A stretch of DNA of 40,304 nucleotides from Candidatus Nomurabacteria bacterium (GCA_943356375.1 CALRET010000002.1:1-40304); one strand, 5' to 3'. Shown: positions 6,425 through 40,091, counted from the first letter of the stretch. Notes: a model not told the origin generated them from the letters alone. Translations and numbers: made by a program.

Positions 6425-6430
6425 GTTAGC

Positions 6431-6482
6431 TTGTCTCCCTACGGGAGATGTCTCCGAAGGGACATAGCTGATAGATAGTAGT
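6431..6482 (+). repeat. 52-nt structured 3'-flank element, copy 1 (after the dnaB stop)
   Basis: TTGTCTCCCTACGGGAGATGTCTCCGAAGGGACATAGCTGATAGATAGTAGT, 49/52 identical to the reverse complement of 7893-7944. Contains UGUCUCC/GGGAGA/UGUCUCC/GGGACA segments capable of alternative hairpins. Confidence 0.8.
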
Positions 6483-6583: not shown

Positions 6584-7192
6584 ATGGATCCCATTTCAAA
6601 ACTTGCAGAACTGTTTGCATATTTCCCAGGAATCGGCGAACGACAGTCGAGGCGTTTTGTGTATTACCTTCTCAACCGCAATCAAGATTATCTCGACCAA
6701 CTTGCAGCATATATTAAAAATATTAAAAATGAAGTGAAGCAATGCACACTCTGTTTCAGGCAACACGAGTCAAGGACTCCTGAATGTGAAAATTGCTTAT
6801 TGAGAGCAGCAAGCAATTCCCTGTTGGTTGTGGAAAAAGATAGTGATCTTGAAACTATTAAAAAAAGTAAAGCCTATGATGGATTATATTTTGTGTTAGG
6901 TGGATTAGTCCCCGTCGTTGAGAAAAATACTCTTTCTAAAGTTCGAATCCAAGAACTTATCAAACGAATAGAAGTGCTTTCTCAAAAAAATAGTCTCCAA
7001 GAAGTTATTCTTGCTTTCTCTCTAAGTCCACAAGGTGACCACACTGACACGCATGTACGAGAAACACTCAATACGCTGTCTACGGAAAAAGGATTTGTCG
7101 TGCACAGTCTCGGACGCGGACTCTCAACAGGAACTGAACTTGAATATTCTGATTCAGATACGATTAAGAATGCATTAAAGAATAGGCAATAA
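6584..7192 (+). CDS. recR: recombination protein RecR
   Basis: 202 aa with an N-terminal helix-hairpin-helix FPGIGERQSRRF, a C4 zinc finger CTLC...CENC and a Toprim-like VVEKDSDL. Confidence 0.85.
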   Translation: MDPISKLAELFAYFPGIGERQSRRFVYYLLNRNQDYLDQLAAYIKNIKNEVKQCTLCFRQHESRTPECENCLLRAASNSLLVVEKDSDLETIKKSKAYDGLYFVLGGLVPVVEKNTLSKVRIQELIKRIEVLSQKNSLQEVILAFSLSPQGDHTDTHVRETLNTLSTEKGFVVHSLGRGLSTGTELEYSDSDTIKNALKNRQ

Positions 7193-7219
7193 GAACAGTT
7201 TATAAAAAATACTCTATAT

Positions 7220-7559
7220 AAACAATAAGTCCCGCCTTTATGGGGCGGGACTTACATTACGAGTAACCATTTTTTTATTTCAGACACTATGGTCGGATGG
7301 TTGGTCAAAATGTACGCGGTAACAGTTAGGAAACTATCTCACACATTCAATAAATGTCTTTCAATATGGCGTCGACTCCATACTCAAACACATATCACCA
7401 AACGAATAAGAAAATAGTAGTTTCTCCAAAAGAGAGTGATCTCTTCTAGAAAGCTATCTGTTACCGCAAATTCGATTCTTTTGTTTTTTCATCGGCAGAT
7501 GAGGTATTAGTTAAACAAATAGATTCAAAGAACATATAAAGCGCATAATTTAACGCTAG
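7220..7559 (-). ncRNA. candidate novel sRNA 1 (~340 nt; promoter-to-terminator unit, no credible ORF)
   Basis: Promoter TTGACA-16-TATAAT lies at 7593-7566 in minus sense. The 3' end is a 10-bp GC-rich hairpin plus UUAUUGUUU (7220-7253). Internal 10-bp long-range pairing GCGGUAACAG/CUGUUACCGC. The longest minus-sense ATG ORF is about 24 codons. Confidence 0.45.
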
Positions 7560-7565
7560 GAGTAT

Positions 7566-7593
7566 ATTATAGCAAATCATATAAATTTGTCAA
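7566..7593 (-). promoter_or_regulatory. near-consensus sigma70-type promoter P1 (TTGACA-16 nt-TATAAT)
   Basis: The reverse complement of 7588-7593 is TTGACA and of 7566-7571 is TATAAT, with a 16-nt spacer. Confidence 0.6.
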
Positions 7594-7603
7594 GTATTCC
7601 TAA

Positions 7604-7822
7604 AAACAATAAGTCCCGCCTTTATGGGGCGGGACTTTAAGTGAATGGATAGTTTTGTTCTTTCAAGCCTTATTTATATGTTCCGGCTGAGGTATCCTTC
7701 AATAATATGTTGCATCGGCTGAGGGTTACTCAGGGTGTCGCTTGTGACACCTAGTAGTTCTTAAGTTGTTCGCAAAGGCATAACGGTTTTAGTGGGTTAA
7801 ACAATAATGCGTTAATTACTCT
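7604..7822 (-). ncRNA. candidate novel sRNA 2 (~220 nt; promoter-to-terminator unit, no credible ORF)
   Basis: Promoter TTGACA-16-TATACT lies at 7856-7829. It ends in the same 34-bp terminator module (7604-7637, identical to 7220-7253). Local hairpins GGUGUCACAAGCGACACC and CUGAGUAACCCUCAG, and CCUCAGCCG occurs twice. Confidence 0.45.
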
Positions 7823-7828
7823 AGAAAC

Positions 7829-7856
7829 AGTATAGCAGATAACAATATTTTGTCAA
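7829..7856 (-). promoter_or_regulatory. near-consensus sigma70-type promoter P2 (TTGACA-16 nt-TATACT)
   Basis: The reverse complement of 7851-7856 is TTGACA and of 7829-7834 is TATACT, with a 16-nt spacer. It shares the flanks taTTGACAaa...tgcTATA with P1. Confidence 0.6.
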
Positions 7857-7861
7857 TACCC

Positions 7862-7892
7862 TAACGAAAATCACCCTAGATGGGTGATTTTT
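7862..7892. terminator. rho-independent terminator downstream of rplU
   Basis: AATCACCC-tagat-GGGTGATT with T-rich flanks on both strands. Confidence 0.65.
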
Positions 7893-7944
7893 ACTACTAG
7901 CTGTCAGCTATGTCCCTTCGGAGACATCTCCCGTAGGAAGACAA
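7893..7944 (-). repeat. 52-nt structured 3'-flank element, copy 2 (after the rplU stop)
   Basis: Minus sense reads TTGTCTTCCTACGGGAGATGTCTCCGAAGGGACATAGCTGACAGCTAGTAGT. It has the same orientation relative to its upstream gene as copy 1. Confidence 0.8.
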
Positions 7945-7952
7945 ACTACTAT

Positions 7953-8270
7953 CTATTTTATCGCAGTAATCTTTACCTTTGTGAATGGCTGTCGATGGCC
8001 ATTTTTCTTGAGATATCGGCTTTTTGCCTTATATTTCATCACAAGGAGAGTCTTTGCCCGGCCATTTTTTTCAAAAGCAGCTTCTACTTTTGCGCCATCA
8101 ATATACGGCATACCAATAGTAGTATCTGAACCATTGTCCACAAGAAGAACTTTATCAAAAACGACCTTGTCGCCTTCTGCAAATTCCCCAGGAAGTTTCT
8201 CGATAGTCAAACTATCTCCAACTTTTACCTTATATTGTTTTCCACCTGTTTGTATTACTGCAAATTCCAT
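7953..8270 (-). CDS. rplU: 50S ribosomal protein L21
   Basis: MEFAVIQTGGKQYKVKVGD... is the classic bL21 N-terminus, giving about 105 aa from this Met. The upstream 9 codons of the track ORF are probably not translated. Confidence 0.9.
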   Translation of the reverse strand: MEFAVIQTGGKQYKVKVGDSLTIEKLPGEFAEGDKVVFDKVLLVDNGSDTTIGMPYIDGAKVEAAFEKNGRAKTLLVMKYKAKSRYLKKNGHRQPFTKVKITAIK

Positions 8271-8429: not shown

Positions 8430-10166
8430 ATGAACATTAAAAAACGAATAATCATGAAAAAAGTAGGATTTGTAAAAAGCGTCTTTGGACGTTTAATAAT
8501 TGCACTATTGATTGCAATTAGCGTATCTGCCATGCTGTACACATCTTCGGATAAAGTACAGAATATGGTACACACAGATTTCAACATTGAAAAAGTTGCT
8601 GAAAAAAGTGTCGCACAGGCTTCATTTGTTTCGGTTGAAAAAATACAGGTAAAAAACGATTGGACAGAAAAACTGCTCCATGTTGATACTGCGTACTCTT
8701 TTGACTCCCCTGCAAAAACGGCAGAGAAATCACCGGAAGAGGTTACTATTAAAACAGTAAACAAGGAGGAGTGGGTTAAAAAAGCTCCAGTAAAAAAACA
8801 GAAGGCACTGAATAAATCTTCTGTAGGGAAAAAAGAGATGAAGACTAGTACTGTTAAACAGAAAGAGGAAGAGATACTTGTTGCGAAATATGTAACAAAA
8901 TCTGCTATTGAAAATGAACCTCTTGCTAATGATTCTATTGCAAGAGAAATTGAATTGTTTGAAAAATACTTAGCAGAAGTTGATAACAAAATGATCAGCA
9001 ATAAAATACCTGCAGTTGCAGATATTTCAACTGAAAATAGAATACTGGGACCAGTAACAGTAGAGGAAGAACAGAGATCCATGGAAATCAACTTCATAAA
9101 AATGCGTGATGATTCATCAAATGAGTTATTGCTCATGCAAAGAACTATTGTCACAGAGATGCCTTTTGACGAACAATTGCTCTCTGTATTACCAAAAGAC
9201 CGGATACAGACAGAAGTAATGACCGCTGAAACAATCCTACCGGAAGAAACAGAGATTCCCACTCAAGATAAAAAAGAACAACAAGAAGTGGATGATGCTA
9301 TTACTATCTATGAAGAGAAAAGTGGTATTGCGGAAGAATCTTTGAAACAACAAGAAATCTCCAAGAAGCTTACTGAATCACTTCTAATTGCTGAAAAGCA
9401 AAAAGAAGTAAACATTGTGCAGAAAATGGAAGAAGCTGAGAAAGCAAAAATGGAGGAAGCGGCAAAGATAGCTGAACGTTCACGCGAAAAAGCTGATTTA
9501 AAAGCTTCTGCGCAGAAACAGAAACGAAAAGTTGAAAAACAACCGGAAGATGTAACGAGTGCAGAAATAACAACCGAAAAAAAGGTTGAGGAAACTGAAA
9601 TCGCAACATTTCCAGTAGTAATTGAAAAAAAAGTATACTCTTTTAAAGAGGATCTCTCAATTGCTCTCAAGACGATCAATAGTCTGAATAACCCTGCGTA
9701 CCACGCAAGACCTGATGGTTCTGCAATATACACTGAGCGTTTTAGTGAAGTGCGTAACTTCTACTATGGACGAGCTGCTGTTCGGAACGAAGGCAAGTGG
9801 TTCTTTATTGACACCACCGGTATGCAAGTATCAAAACAATATTGGTCAGCATGGAATTACAAAGAAGGGTTTGCTGTTGTCGCAGAGCGAGATAGTGTTA
9901 CAGGAGTTATCCTATACCATCATATCGATACAGAAGGTAAAGAAATGTACTCAGAAAAATTTAAAGATCTGAGTGATTTCAAAAAGGTGGATGAGAACGG
10001 AAACTGGACAAGTGAACTGCCAAAAGTGAATCTTGTTGCTTTCGGAAGAAAAATCGTTACAGAAAAAAATAGAGGGAAAACTACCCTCAAACAGGTTATA
10101 TATCAAATAGACGGATACGGAACTATCACCCCCTATACAGGGACACTAGATACCCGATTCAAATAA
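8430..10166 (+). CDS. membrane-anchored protein with a long Lys/Glu-rich low-complexity region and a C-terminal WG/KWG-type repeat domain
   Basis: N-terminal hydrophobic anchor (GRLIIALLIAISVSAM), about 350 aa of E/K-rich sequence, then ...GRAAVRNEGKWFFIDTTGMQVS...YKEGFAVVAERD..., which resembles WG-containing beta-propeller-like repeats. Confidence 0.6.
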   Translation: MNIKKRIIMKKVGFVKSVFGRLIIALLIAISVSAMLYTSSDKVQNMVHTDFNIEKVAEKSVAQASFVSVEKIQVKNDWTEKLLHVDTAYSFDSPAKTAEKSPEEVTIKTVNKEEWVKKAPVKKQKALNKSSVGKKEMKTSTVKQKEEEILVAKYVTKSAIENEPLANDSIAREIELFEKYLAEVDNKMISNKIPAVADISTENRILGPVTVEEEQRSMEINFIKMRDDSSNELLLMQRTIVTEMPFDEQLLSVLPKDRIQTEVMTAETILPEETEIPTQDKKEQQEVDDAITIYEEKSGIAEESLKQQEISKKLTESLLIAEKQKEVNIVQKMEEAEKAKMEEAAKIAERSREKADLKASAQKQKRKVEKQPEDVTSAEITTEKKVEETEIATFPVVIEKKVYSFKEDLSIALKTINSLNNPAYHARPDGSAIYTERFSEVRNFYYGRAAVRNEGKWFFIDTTGMQVSKQYWSAWNYKEGFAVVAERDSVTGVILYHHIDTEGKEMYSEKFKDLSDFKKVDENGNWTSELPKVNLVAFGRKIVTEKNRGKTTLKQVIYQIDGYGTITPYTGTLDTRFK

Positions 10167-13999: not shown

Positions 14000-14029
14000 C
14001 TAGAACCTAGCAACTAGCCCCTAGAACCT
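14000..14029. repeat. CTAG-heptad element, copy B
   Basis: Sequence CTAGAACCTAGCAACTAGCCCCTAGAACCT. CTAG starts at 14000, 14007, 14014 and 14021. It lies between the kinase stop (14035) and its terminator. Confidence 0.7.
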
Positions 14030-14034
14030 GTCTT

Positions 14035-15684
14035 TTACAGCTCCACAATAAACGTCGATCCCTTACCTACCCCCGGAGATTCTACCCACACTTTCCCTTT
14101 ATGCGCACCGACAATTTCTTTTGCTAAATAGAGTCCGAGACCTGATCCGCCAGCATTTACCTTGCCGCCTTCACCACGTGCAAATTTTTGAAAGAGTGAT
14201 TGTTTAGTTTCTTCGGTCATACCCATACCAGTATCTGTAACAGAGAATCGAATCTTGTCTTTATTCTTCCCGAGAATAACAGAGATACTTCCTCCTTTTG
14301 TATATTTAATAGAATTGTCTATCAGGTTTAAGAAAACTTGACGCAATTTTTCCATATCACCATTAAGTGTGTATGGTGCTTGATTATCAGTTTTGAAATC
14401 CATAACAAGTCCTTTCTTTTCTGCAGTAATTCTCAAATCATCAACTATTTCTTTCGCTGTTTTTTCCATGTCAAATGGTGCCATCTGATAGACCATGCCA
14501 CCTTGCTCAATTTTCGTCACATTCAAGAGATCTTCAACAACTTTCGCCAAATGTTTACTGGACTGAAATACTTTATCAATAGTATCCTTTTGCACACCTG
14601 TAACCTCACCAAAACTACCTTCGAGAAGCATAGATGTGTACCCTTTTATCGCAGTAAGCGGTGAACGAAGTTGATGGGATGCAAGAGACAAGAATTCCGT
14701 CTTTAGTTTATCAAGCCCCTTCAATTTTTCATTGGCATCATAGAGTTCTAAACTGATCTTCTGTAATCGTTCTTTTTGAGTAATTTCATTTTTAATAGAC
14801 CTAATGAGTATAATCCCTAAAATAATCAAAAGTACAAGGGTTATCAAAACAATTACATGAACGACATCTATTTTATTAATAAATATCAGCGATAGGACTA
14901 ATACCCACAAAGAATATACCAATGCTTGCGAACCAAACAAACGCATATTAAAACTCTTATATCGAACAATGGTATACGTAACCAGCCCAAGAAATACAAC
15001 CATTCCTAGGGGGCCAACCAGGTTGACTTCATAATTTTGTGTAATTTCACCGTAAATATTCGAAACAGAGAAAGCGAGAAGGAAGAGTGTGAGACCAGTT
15101 GTCATCAAAGTGATCTGCCTTCGCTTATTATAATCTTGTTTATTTGTTATATATCCCTTAATACCAATAATCAAAACCCATAAGAGTGTGAGGATTTCAA
15201 AACCATATACAAAATACCAGAAAATTCCTAATGACCCCTCGCAGTAGACACTATCGTATGATTGAATATTATAGATTGTCGGTACAGCAATTAATGTTGC
15301 GATATATACAATTAACAAAATCCCGTTGATAACCCAAGAAACGTTATTTCCATTTATAAAAGTACGAATATAAGCAATAGAAAATATGAAGATAGAAATC
15401 TCAAACAACACAGTTAATTGCCAAGCAAACATTAAGCCGACATGGTATGAAGAAACCCATTGAACAAGCACGTTAAGAATCCATAATGCAAAACTCATCG
15501 CAATACCAAAAAATAGCTTGCTTCGTACTGAATAATTATCCTTTACTAAAATAATACTCGATAAGATTATTGAAATAATCAATATTGGAATGTATGAATA
15601 GAACAACAATGTCGGTGCAGTAGAGAAATCAAAAATCCCTAAGAAAGATGGTGCTTCTGTTCCACAAATTGAATTTAATAACAT
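14035..15684 (-). CDS. sensor histidine kinase with a polytopic membrane N-terminal domain
   Basis: About 8-9 predicted TM helices followed by a coiled linker. HisKA H-box LASHQLRSPLTAI, and HATPase N/G boxes (NLIDNSIKYT, DTGMGM, GGSGLGLYLAKEIV). No response regulator is adjacent. Confidence 0.85.
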   Translation of the reverse strand: MLLNSICGTEAPSFLGIFDFSTAPTLLFYSYIPILIISIILSSIILVKDNYSVRSKLFFGIAMSFALWILNVLVQWVSSYHVGLMFAWQLTVLFEISIFIFSIAYIRTFINGNNVSWVINGILLIVYIATLIAVPTIYNIQSYDSVYCEGSLGIFWYFVYGFEILTLLWVLIIGIKGYITNKQDYNKRRQITLMTTGLTLFLLAFSVSNIYGEITQNYEVNLVGPLGMVVFLGLVTYTIVRYKSFNMRLFGSQALVYSLWVLVLSLIFINKIDVVHVIVLITLVLLIILGIILIRSIKNEITQKERLQKISLELYDANEKLKGLDKLKTEFLSLASHQLRSPLTAIKGYTSMLLEGSFGEVTGVQKDTIDKVFQSSKHLAKVVEDLLNVTKIEQGGMVYQMAPFDMEKTAKEIVDDLRITAEKKGLVMDFKTDNQAPYTLNGDMEKLRQVFLNLIDNSIKYTKGGSISVILGKNKDKIRFSVTDTGMGMTEETKQSLFQKFARGEGGKVNAGGSGLGLYLAKEIVGAHKGKVWVESPGVGKGSTFIVEL

Positions 15685-33140: not shown

Positions 33141-33193
33141 GTTGTATGGTACATATTGTCTGCCGTCACTTTACAAAATATATCATTGAATGT

Positions 33194-33228
33194 AAAGGAC
33201 TGGGATGCCTACGGCATCCCAGTCCTTT
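33194..33228. terminator. 16-bp perfect hairpin downstream of the 110-aa membrane protein gene
   Basis: AAAGGACTGGGATGCC-tac-GGCATCCCAGTCCTTT. The T-tail is weak in minus sense. Confidence 0.55.
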
Positions 33229-33243
33229 ATTTATCATTCTCTC

Positions 33244-36952: not shown

Positions 36953-36994
36953 ATGTTTTTGTGAGAAAAGAAATCAAGACAAAATTGTTTTAGT

Positions 36995-37060
36995 CCCACT
37001 CTATCCCACTGCAATACATTGTACTCCACTTTATCCCACACGACTAGTTTAATTACCCAC
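36995..37060 (-). promoter_or_regulatory. array of five GTGG(G/A) boxes (candidate MraZ operator) over the mraZ promoter region
   Basis: Plus-strand CCCAC/TCCAC at 36995, 37005, 37025, 37035 and 37056, with spacings of 10, 20, 10 and 21 nt (helical phasing). A TACAAT -10 candidate at 37018-37023 lies among them. Confidence 0.6.
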
Positions 37061-37065
37061 TTTTC

Positions 37066-37074
37066 TGTGGATAA
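37066..37074 (-). promoter_or_regulatory. single perfect DnaA-box 9-mer (TTATCCACA)
   Basis: The plus strand reads TGTGGATAA at 37066-37074. It is an isolated box and there is no oriC-like cluster. Confidence 0.3.
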
Positions 37075-37136
37075 CGAGGTACTTGTATGAAATACAAAAC
37101 TAATGTATACTCTTGTCAAACAGATCTTTAAATCCA

Positions 37137-37319
37137 ATGAAAAAAAACGAACAAAACAAAGAACAGCAGATTCCAAATCAAGACTTTAAACCTGATAAAT
37201 ATGGCTATCTGGTTGAAAAAAACCTTTTAAATGAAGATCAGCGAAAACTGACCATTCAAAGCGTAGGTTTCGATACGACCACGAAACGTGAAATTTATGG
37301 AATTTTCTGTTCAAAATGA
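37137..37319 (+). CDS. hypothetical 60-aa protein
   Basis: MKKNEQNKEQQIPNQ.... The promoter TTGTAT-17-TATACT (37084-37111) lies upstream and a perfect terminator follows immediately. The track start at 37113 is a TTG abutting the -10. Confidence 0.4.
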   Translation: MKKNEQNKEQQIPNQDFKPDKYGYLVEKNLLNEDQRKLTIQSVGFDTTTKREIYGIFCSK

Positions 37320-37346
37320 AAAAAGCGGACAATTGTCCGCTTTTTA
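37318..37346. terminator. bidirectional rho-independent terminator
   Basis: AAAAAGCGGACAATTGTCCGCTTTTT, a perfect palindrome. Confidence 0.8.
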
Positions 37347-37362
37347 TAATACCCTTATACTT

Positions 37363-39476: not shown

Positions 39477-39506
39477 AGGTTTTAGGTTCAAGTTGCTAGG
39501 TTATAG
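39477..39506. repeat. CTAG-heptad element, copy D (degenerate, inverted relative to A-C)
   Basis: AGGTTTTAGGTTCAAGTTGCTAGGTTATAG, 25/30 identical to the reverse complement of copy B. NTAG/NAAG recurs at a 7-nt period (39482, 39489, 39496, 39503). Confidence 0.6.
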
Positions 39507-39540
39507 TAAATACGAACACAATCAGTATAACGTATTTGTC

Positions 39541-39586: not shown

Positions 39587-39616
39587 CTAGAAACTAGAAC
39601 CTAGTCCCTAACACCT
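39587..39616. repeat. CTAG-heptad element, copy C
   Basis: CTAGAAACTAGAACCTAGTCCCTAACACCT, with CTAG at 39587, 39594 and 39601 and CTAA at 39608. It lies between the greA stop and its terminator. Confidence 0.7.
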
Positions 39617-39620
39617 TTCC

Positions 39621-40091
39621 CTACGCTACATCAGTAACACTGTATTCGATTGGGCCACGAGGGGTTACCACAGATACAATGTCACCTTTCTTCTTTCCAA
39701 AAAGTATTTCACCCATAGGAGAACGATTTGAAATTTTGTTCTTAGTCATATCAGATTCTTCTGATCCAACTATTTGATAGGTTGTTTTTTCAGATGAGCC
39801 TTTTTTTGAAACAGTCACCGTTGAACCAATCTCAATGATTGCCCCATGTGCTTTCTTATCCATAACAACTGCATTTCGGAGAATGTGTTCGATTTGACCG
39901 ATTCTTTCTTCAAGTTTTCCTTGTTCCTCACGAGCAGAATGATACTCAGCATTCTCAGACAAATCGCCGAGCGATTTTGCAAACTCCAAACTATCTAAAA
40001 TTTCCTTACGTTTTGTTGTCTTTAACGTCTCAAGTTCAGCGAGTAATGCCTTCTTCTTTTCTGTTGTAATATAATCTAATTCTTTATTCAT
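39621..40091 (-). CDS. greA: transcription elongation factor GreA
   Basis: About 156 aa from MNKELDYITTEKKKALLAELETL.... It has an N-terminal coiled coil with DLSENAEYHSAREEQ and a C-terminal ISNRSPMGEILFGKKKGD. TATAAT ends 7 nt before this ATG. Confidence 0.88.
   Translation of the reverse strand: MNKELDYITTEKKKALLAELETLKTTKRKEILDSLEFAKSLGDLSENAEYHSAREEQGKLEERIGQIEHILRNAVVMDKKAHGAIIEIGSTVTVSKKGSSEKTTYQIVGSEESDMTKNKISNRSPMGEILFGKKKGDIVSVVTPRGPIEYSVTDVA

Follow-up and report, generated by a model that had tools for sequence, protein, structure and literature searches.

Two putative structured non-coding RNA genes at the recR/rplU junction of a narrow Paceibacteria lineage

The window analysed here is a stretch of 40,304 nucleotides from Candidatus Nomurabacteria bacterium (GCA_943356375.1, CALRET010000002.1:1-40304). 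The source contig belongs to Paceibacterota (Parcubacteria, candidate phyla radiation), and all named relatives of its RecR and L21 proteins come from the same group. Between recR and rplU lies an island that holds two units on the minus strand, termed A and B, whose predicted parts are collected in Table 1. The terminator of rplU forms the upstream boundary of the island and is situated outside both units. The initial annotation had described the intergenic gaps elsewhere in the window as mostly under 170 bp; this is roughly right, although the list of window ORFs contains three exceptions of ~290, 310 and 410 bp. Two further members of the 90% RecR cluster, with RecR proteins that are 94-96% identical, are found on contigs that carry the island as well. 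Three distinct versions of the island are thereby available, namely that of the window, that of L009-L012 (four JGI and SRA contigs with an identical island, represented below by L009) and that of L013 (one contig). In all three genomes the neighbouring genes are dnaB, recR, rplU, the gene of a WG-repeat protein, corA and cysS.

Table 1. Positions of the features at the recR/rplU junction, counted from the first letter of the window
Feature	Position	Strand	Remarks
recR	6584-7192	+	left flank of island
island	7193-7952		two minus-strand units between recR and rplU
unit B, predicted RNA	7215..7559	-	~345 nt; ends predicted; ~300 nt before terminator
unit B terminator hairpin	7225..7255	-	same module as unit A; faces recR 3' end
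unit B core domain	7316..7467	-	three-way junction closed by invariant helix
unit B invariant block	7448..7490	-	43 nt; identical in three genomes; overlaps 12-codon micro-ORF
unit B promoter, TTGACA-16-TATAAT	7566..7593 (7593-7566)	-	12/12 match; TG before -10
unit A, predicted RNA	7600..7822	-	~220 nt; ends predicted; body ~185 nt
unit A terminator hairpin, AAGTCCCGCC-7 nt loop-GGCGGGACTT	7611..7637	-	T-rich tail to ~7600
unit A promoter, TTGACA-16-TATACT	7829..7856 (7856-7829)	-	11/12 match; TG before -10
rplU terminator, AAAAUCACCC-loop-GGGUGAUUUU	7867..7892	-	read from sequence; kept in L009 and L013
rplU	7953-8270	-	right flank; 105 aa as called in source assembly

The WG-repeat protein, a Lys/Glu-rich protein of 578 aa encoded at 8430-10166 between rplU and corA, has one WG_beta_rep match. 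The two island-bearing relatives encode homologues of 598 and 548 aa, and the protein is absent from relatives in which the island is absent; phylogeny alone may explain this co-occurrence. We also note several other intergenic elements in the window. A 56-nt element occurs at 6427-6482 and, inverted, at 7893-7948 with a match of 93%, each copy lying directly past a stop codon (dnaB and rplU, respectively) and in the same sense with respect to its gene. Two overlapping hairpins, GTCTCCCTACGGGAGA / ATGTCTCCGAAGGGACAT, can be drawn for the element, which is found in the window's own strain only, being absent from L009 and L013. Repeats of the CTAGAACCTAGC type are located in three intergenic gaps (1459-1496, 14000-14037 and 39587-39624), with an inverted copy at 39477-39514, a family which indicates that this genome spreads short intergenic modules. 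At 33192-33230 on the plus strand, a perfect, GC-rich hairpin of 18 bp with a T-rich tail behind it occupies a short gap between two minus-strand genes. The 410-bp ORF-free gap at 36953-37362 lies upstream of mraZ, the start of a cell-division gene cluster; it contains the terminator of the preceding gene (37345-37320) and gives no Rfam match.

Two near-consensus promoters on the minus strand of the island had been reported from inspection of the sequence, and both are present, ranking first and second among ~139 promoter-like sites in the window. Since matches of at least 11/12 are not enriched window-wide (3 observed in 40 kb, 2.5 in shuffles), promoter sequence quality by itself is weak evidence, and it is position and conservation that carry the case. 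Two such promoters on one strand within 760 bp have an expectation of ~0.02, as estimated from the shuffle counts. The TTGACA and TATAAT hexamers of the unit B promoter are identical in all three genomes, with a variable spacer between them. In the unit A promoter TTGACA is kept, the -10 hexamer reads TATACT in the window, TACAAT in L009 and TAAAGT in L013, and the spacer differs. With a start ~7 nt past each -10, the unit lengths of ~220 nt for A and ~345 nt for B prove correct.

At the opposite end, the units share a terminator repeat of 37 nt with one mismatch (7217-7253 = 7601-7637), within which lies the identical 34-nt module (7220-7253 = 7604-7637) that had been pointed out at both unit ends. 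The GC-rich hairpin attributed to this module is likewise present, with 10-12 bp, and the T-rich tail follows it in the minus sense only. The terminator of unit B is conserved in the three genomes. In L013, the terminator position of unit A is taken by another GC hairpin, so that the shared module is not obligatory for unit A. In both units a small GC hairpin and then UGAAA(G/U)AA(C/A)AAAA are observed ~25-30 nt before the terminator, at 7648-7665 in A and 7279-7295 in B; this A-rich motif reads GGCCUGAAAGAACAAAAAC in unit B of L009, compared with GGCUUGAAAGAACAAAAC in unit A. The resemblance is weak, its score of 3.9 being equal to the best of 100 shuffles, and homology between the bodies of A and B is not significant.

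The island has no credible coding capacity, as the initial annotation had held: there is no ORF of at least 60 aa within 7193-7952. The longest ORF on the promoter strand, and the only one above 31 aa, has 39 aa (7461-7580); its ATG falls inside promoter B, between the -35 and -10 hexamers, and it has no Shine-Dalgarno sequence. The small-ORF conservation check that had been proposed revealed no ORF conserved with a coding-type substitution pattern. The longest shared ORF of unit A (13 codons) is frame-shifted in L013, a 14-codon ORF across a unit B hairpin differs by 2 synonymous and 5 non-synonymous changes, several of the latter being radical, and about one third of the residues are changed in a 31-codon ORF of the opposite strand. 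The exception is a 12-codon micro-ORF in the invariant block of unit B, (A/G)UG AAA AAA CAA AAG AAU CGA AUU UGC GGU AAC AGA UAG, which is intact in all three genomes. It starts with ATG, but with GTG in L013, a change that leaves a valid start. That the units are mRNAs for micro-proteins, such as the 12-residue M/V-KKQKNRICGNR of unit B, is nevertheless very improbable. No Shine-Dalgarno sequence precedes the micro-ORF, the sequence at that place being ACCUCAUCUGCCG, and all 39 nt, every synonymous site included, are invariant together with flanking bases; since the synonymous sites are also frozen, constraint at the RNA level fits better than coding. A micro-protein would further leave the ~230 nt of conserved structure downstream unexplained, and unit A has no conserved ORF.

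Comparison of the three islands reveals a rearrangement. The order is rplU, A, B, recR in the window; rplU, A, B, a 78-aa gene cassette, recR in L013; and rplU, B, A, recR in L009. In every arrangement each unit has its own promoter and terminator, and the exchange of order in L009 argues that the units are independent. The similarities between the genomes are incongruent as well: unit A of the window is nearest to that of L009 (89-92%), and unit B of the window is nearest to that of L013 (92-93%). Together, the order swap and the incongruent similarity suggest the exchange or rearrangement of whole cassettes between strains, for which the repeated terminator may have provided the homology.

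Conservation in relatives together with covariation had been named as a test of the two units. Both units are present in both close relatives found in the databases, with compensatory base-pair changes. The bodies are 78-89% identical for unit A and 80-92% identical for unit B in pairwise comparisons of the three genomes. Over the same pairs, the four-fold degenerate sites differ by 37-51% in recR and by 22-32% in rplU, and the dnaB-recR spacer has an identity of 0.53-0.60 versus 0.53-0.58 after shuffling. The alignments thus show purifying selection on the unit bodies and the promoter hexamers, with divergence much slower than that of neutral DNA. It is highly improbable that the island is non-functional, made of decayed repeats or of remnants of promoters and terminators whose likeness to genes is fortuitous. 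Such an origin could account for promoter matches of at least 11/12 at chance frequency, and it would be in keeping with a genome that spreads other intergenic repeat modules. It fails to explain why the bodies are so much better conserved than neutral intergenic DNA, why compensatory changes are found, why the predicted structure is strand-specific and dependent on G-U pairs, and why the promoter hexamers are kept in three genomes despite rearrangement.

The predicted fold of unit B comprises a 5' hairpin, a hairpin H2, the core domain, a 3' hairpin domain and the terminator, with ~70% of the bases paired. The minimum free energy is -110.1 kcal/mol (z = -9.06), whereas that of the opposite strand is only -85.9, and the minus strand is thus favoured by 24 kcal/mol. 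The minus-strand fold contains 14 G-U pairs, five of them within one 10-bp helix, which become C-A mismatches when the opposite strand is folded; such a difference suggests that the RNA is transcribed from the minus strand. The orthologues, folded independently, reproduce the core and the 3' domain, with z = -7.2 (L009) and -7.1 (L013). The 5' hairpin has a wholly different sequence in L009, yet the hairpin is retained. In the core domain, the closing helix has 10 bp in the window and 9 pairs in the three-sequence consensus. Arm 1 is an 11-bp hairpin with the loop UCAC, and arm 2 is a ~37-bp hairpin with the invariant 8-nt apical loop AGUCGACG (7370-7377), which contains the palindrome GUCGAC. 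Through this invariant palindromic loop, unit B could in principle self-associate. Avoidance of GTCGAC was also tested, and none was observed. On the 5' side of the junction lie 29 nt, a hairpin among them, and on the 3' side 0 nt.

Unit A is less structured (z = -3.8). Its 5' part of ~47 nt is variable and unpaired, and is followed by the invariant single-stranded TGCGAACAACTTAA at 7774-7761, two small hairpins, the 3' hairpin and the terminator. The 3' hairpin has an invariant A-rich apical loop of 15 nt, AACAUAUAAAUAAG, and an invariant internal loop, CUUGAAAGAA. The invariant blocks of the unit in the three genomes are TGCGAACAACTTAA, AACATATAAATAAG and CTTGAAAGAA. A complementarity of 9-11 nt between the apical loop of A and a hairpin arm of B recurs in the three genomes; pairing between A and B was rejected, the complementarity being no greater than chance expects of two conserved segments.

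The consensus structures of the three sequences (RNAalifold) contain 37 pairs for unit A, with standard pairs in 98% of the cells, and 114 pairs for unit B, with standard pairs in 96%. When the partners are slid by 1-3 columns, only 33-42% and 40-48% of the cells remain paired, respectively. Pairs in which both partners have changed number 6 in unit A (shuffle expectation 2.0) and 6 in unit B (1.9), a count reached by 0 of 500 shuffles in either case and contrasting with 0-2 in the slid-partner controls of both units; coming from three distinct sequences, this covariation is suggestive, is statistically not firm and does not constitute proof of structure. Three of the double changes of unit A are located in its terminator, where the alignment of the two different terminator sequences gives 3 double changes.

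Known RNA families were sought with the 4227 covariance models of Rfam 15, applied at the gathering threshold over the whole window and at a permissive E ≤ 10 to 7100-8050 (951 bases). No match reached the gathering score in the whole window, as would be expected if the island were novel in the sense first proposed. At E ≤ 10 the island region gave only sub-threshold matches that centre on the terminator hairpin, the best being isrJ with 21.5 bits versus a threshold of 37, and nothing relevant was found at E ≤ 5 in the L009 and L013 loci. The earlier failure to recognize RNase P, tmRNA or SRP RNA by eye is corroborated, because no such model appears even among the noise at E ≤ 10.

The hallmarks of each familiar class were also considered individually. 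tmRNA is recognized by a tRNA-like acceptor and T-arm together with a tag reading frame. Neither tmRNA nor tRNA genes are reported by ARAGORN for the window, the tmRNA models of Rfam give no match, and a GCG-AAC-AAC frame in unit A, considered as a tag frame, is broken by 1-nt indels between orthologues. RNase P RNA is defined by the P4 pseudoknot sequences and by core helices that the RNaseP_bact_a/b models recognize, and no such model matches at E ≤ 10. An AAGUCC-like string occurs solely in the terminator stem; both units have a copy of this stem, and unit A of L013 has another one in its place. The mark of SRP RNA is its domain IV hairpin, in which a GNRA tetraloop is combined with conserved loops of symmetric and asymmetric type. 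At E ≤ 10 none of the SRP models gives a match, and the apical loops are AGUCGACG in unit B and the A-rich 15-nt loop in unit A. 6S RNA forms a long rod with paired ends, in the middle of which a large two-stranded bubble imitates an open promoter. There is no 6S-type Rfam match, unit A has its variable, unpaired 47 nt at the 5' end, and unit B lacks a two-stranded central bubble, because its junction has 29 nt on one side and 0 on the other. Retron msr-msd, omega RNA, bridge RNA and tracrRNA were rejected as well, with no adjoining reverse transcriptase, TnpB/IscB, IS110 recombinase or Cas protein, as were a DGR template/variable repeat and a CRISPR or tandem array, with no repeat array or second copy in the window.

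The distribution of the units is narrow. GTDB representatives include no close genome, their RecR matches being only distant (32-33% identity). The next relatives, with 62% identity in RecR and 79-84% in L21, have neither the island nor a homologue of either unit within the 2-20 kb available per locus; those at 79-84% identity in L21 have the same recR/rplU neighbourhood with other junction contents. Contigs with an identical L21 add one member, which is short and ends before the island. Covariance models built from unit A and from the core of unit B detect no more copies in ~240 kb of related DNA or elsewhere in the window. A pattern scan for the conserved unit B motif in a metagenome collection that does not include the island-bearing JGI contigs gave 16 matches, all of which nhmmer and the covariance model assign to chance. 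Pattern scans of viral contigs gave 0 matches, and a distant blastn against phage records gave nothing. The units are, on present evidence, known from one narrow clade and sited at a variable junction, and this would make them accessory RNAs rather than universal housekeeping RNAs.

The distribution also bears on whether one or both units represent a very divergent housekeeping RNA (6S/Ms1-like, RNase P, SRP or tmRNA), which is quite unlikely. The very strong promoters, the sizes of ~220 and 345 nt, which are within range, and the highly structured unit B would suit such an RNA. RNAs of candidate phyla radiation bacteria can be atypical, and the SRP RNA gene of Bacillus is found near dnaX-recR. 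In contrast, no model of this kind is detected at the permissive cutoffs in the window or the relatives, ARAGORN reports no tmRNA, and unit B does not have the central bubble. The island is moreover missing at the locus in the next relatives, and essential RNAs are not expected as order-swapped cassettes in a variable junction.

How variable this junction is becomes apparent from the relatives. It is a gap of 25 bp in L007 and is also empty in L030; it contains a 169-aa ORF in L006, an ABC transporter and a 61-aa ORF in L031, and hypothetical-protein ORFs of 183/228 aa in L033-L036. The 78-aa gene cassette at the junction of L013 has its own TTGACA promoter and terminator. Since the junction carries a different cargo in each relative, or nothing, and since the order swap and the incongruent A/B relationships fit cassette exchange, units A and B might be cargo RNAs of a mobile or hotspot module, that is, a toxin-antitoxin or defence RNA, or a guide or scaffold RNA with its protein partner elsewhere. 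We regard this as unlikely. No integrase, transposase, reverse transcriptase, nuclease or toxin gene adjoins the island in the three genomes, and no clue to an RNA chaperone or a mobile element is found among the ten window genes scanned against Pfam. The small cargo ORFs of the relatives have no Pfam match, and neither similarity to phage records or viral contigs nor a repeat array is observed.

Considered together, these observations probably reflect two independent structured non-coding RNA genes, both read from the minus strand and each equipped with a strong sigma-70 promoter and an intrinsic terminator of its own. Such genes would be confined to a single narrow lineage of Paceibacteria, and their products would function as RNAs rather than as mRNAs. 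The original proposal of two dedicated non-coding transcripts of an unfamiliar class is thus supported, for predicted genes, by their anatomy, selection, structure and modular independence.

The layout of the units permits some suggestions about their roles. Unit A might be a trans-acting regulator that pairs with its targets through a candidate seed, the invariant unpaired GCGAACAACUUAA between helices, and its 3' hairpin and A-rich loops might serve stability or act as a platform for protein binding; the base-pairing role is read from the shape of unit A and is proposed with low confidence. Exact complements of the candidate seeds yielded self matches only, with no target for the unit A seed in the window, and RNAduplex against the translation start regions of the window yielded long duplexes that are uninformative. 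Unit B appears too large and too fully paired for base-pairing, and could instead be a protein-binding or architectural RNA, again with low confidence, as is the whole division of function between A and B, which is drawn from shape alone. A more far-reaching and rather unlikely possibility is that unit B founds a hitherto undescribed class of large structured RNAs confined to candidate phyla radiation bacteria and would form an RNA-protein or RNA-only assembly, for instance by self-pairing of GUCGAC or by sequestering RNA polymerase or another core protein. Its regulatory or physical partner would then be unit A, and the pair would be exchanged between strains as self-contained promoter-RNA-terminator cassettes.

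Candidate phyla radiation bacteria are mostly uncultured and have very small genomes, and the phylum of the window is poorly studied. Full-text literature searches yielded no account of a small regulatory or structured RNA from Paceibacteria or from other members of this radiation. The presence of two strongly promoted RNA genes under selective maintenance in a genome of this kind suggests that RNA-based functions escape annotation pipelines, and units A and B are concrete targets for metatranscriptome mapping. With their order swap and incongruence, they would also represent small-RNA genes that behave as exchangeable cassettes at a variable chromosomal junction. The narrow distribution and the three known variants limit the impact of these findings.

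Among known systems, 6S/Ms1 RNA resembles the units in being a stand-alone, strongly promoted and structured RNA of ~200-350 nt with a long irregular helix. The three-way junction of unit B, with no central bubble, and the very narrow rather than phylum-wide distribution set the units apart from it. The raiA motif, OLE, ROOL and GOLLD RNAs share with them much conserved structure, no coding capacity and restriction to particular lineages. OLE, ROOL and GOLLD are larger than unit B, and the units differ from these classes in having no Rfam match and in being known from three sequences.

The arrangement of the two units is reminiscent of OmrA/OmrB of E. coli and PrrF1/PrrF2 of Pseudomonas, which are tandem ‘sibling’ small-RNA genes. 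In both cases small-RNA genes are adjacent on one strand, each with a promoter and an intrinsic terminator, and have end sequences in common, which are here the terminator module and, upstream of it, the weakly similar small hairpin with UGAAAGAACAAAA. In contrast to those siblings, the bodies of A and B are unrelated and very unlike in length and fold; unit B greatly exceeds the usual base-pairing small RNA in both size and degree of structure, and the shared terminator is missing from unit A of L013. Both units present a promoter, an intrinsic terminator, conserved sequence and structure, and no conserved ORF, which are the features of a stand-alone bacterial small RNA gene. Units A and B match no described RNA family and, as judged from these features, are new families of a familiar kind, namely stand-alone bacterial non-coding RNA genes.
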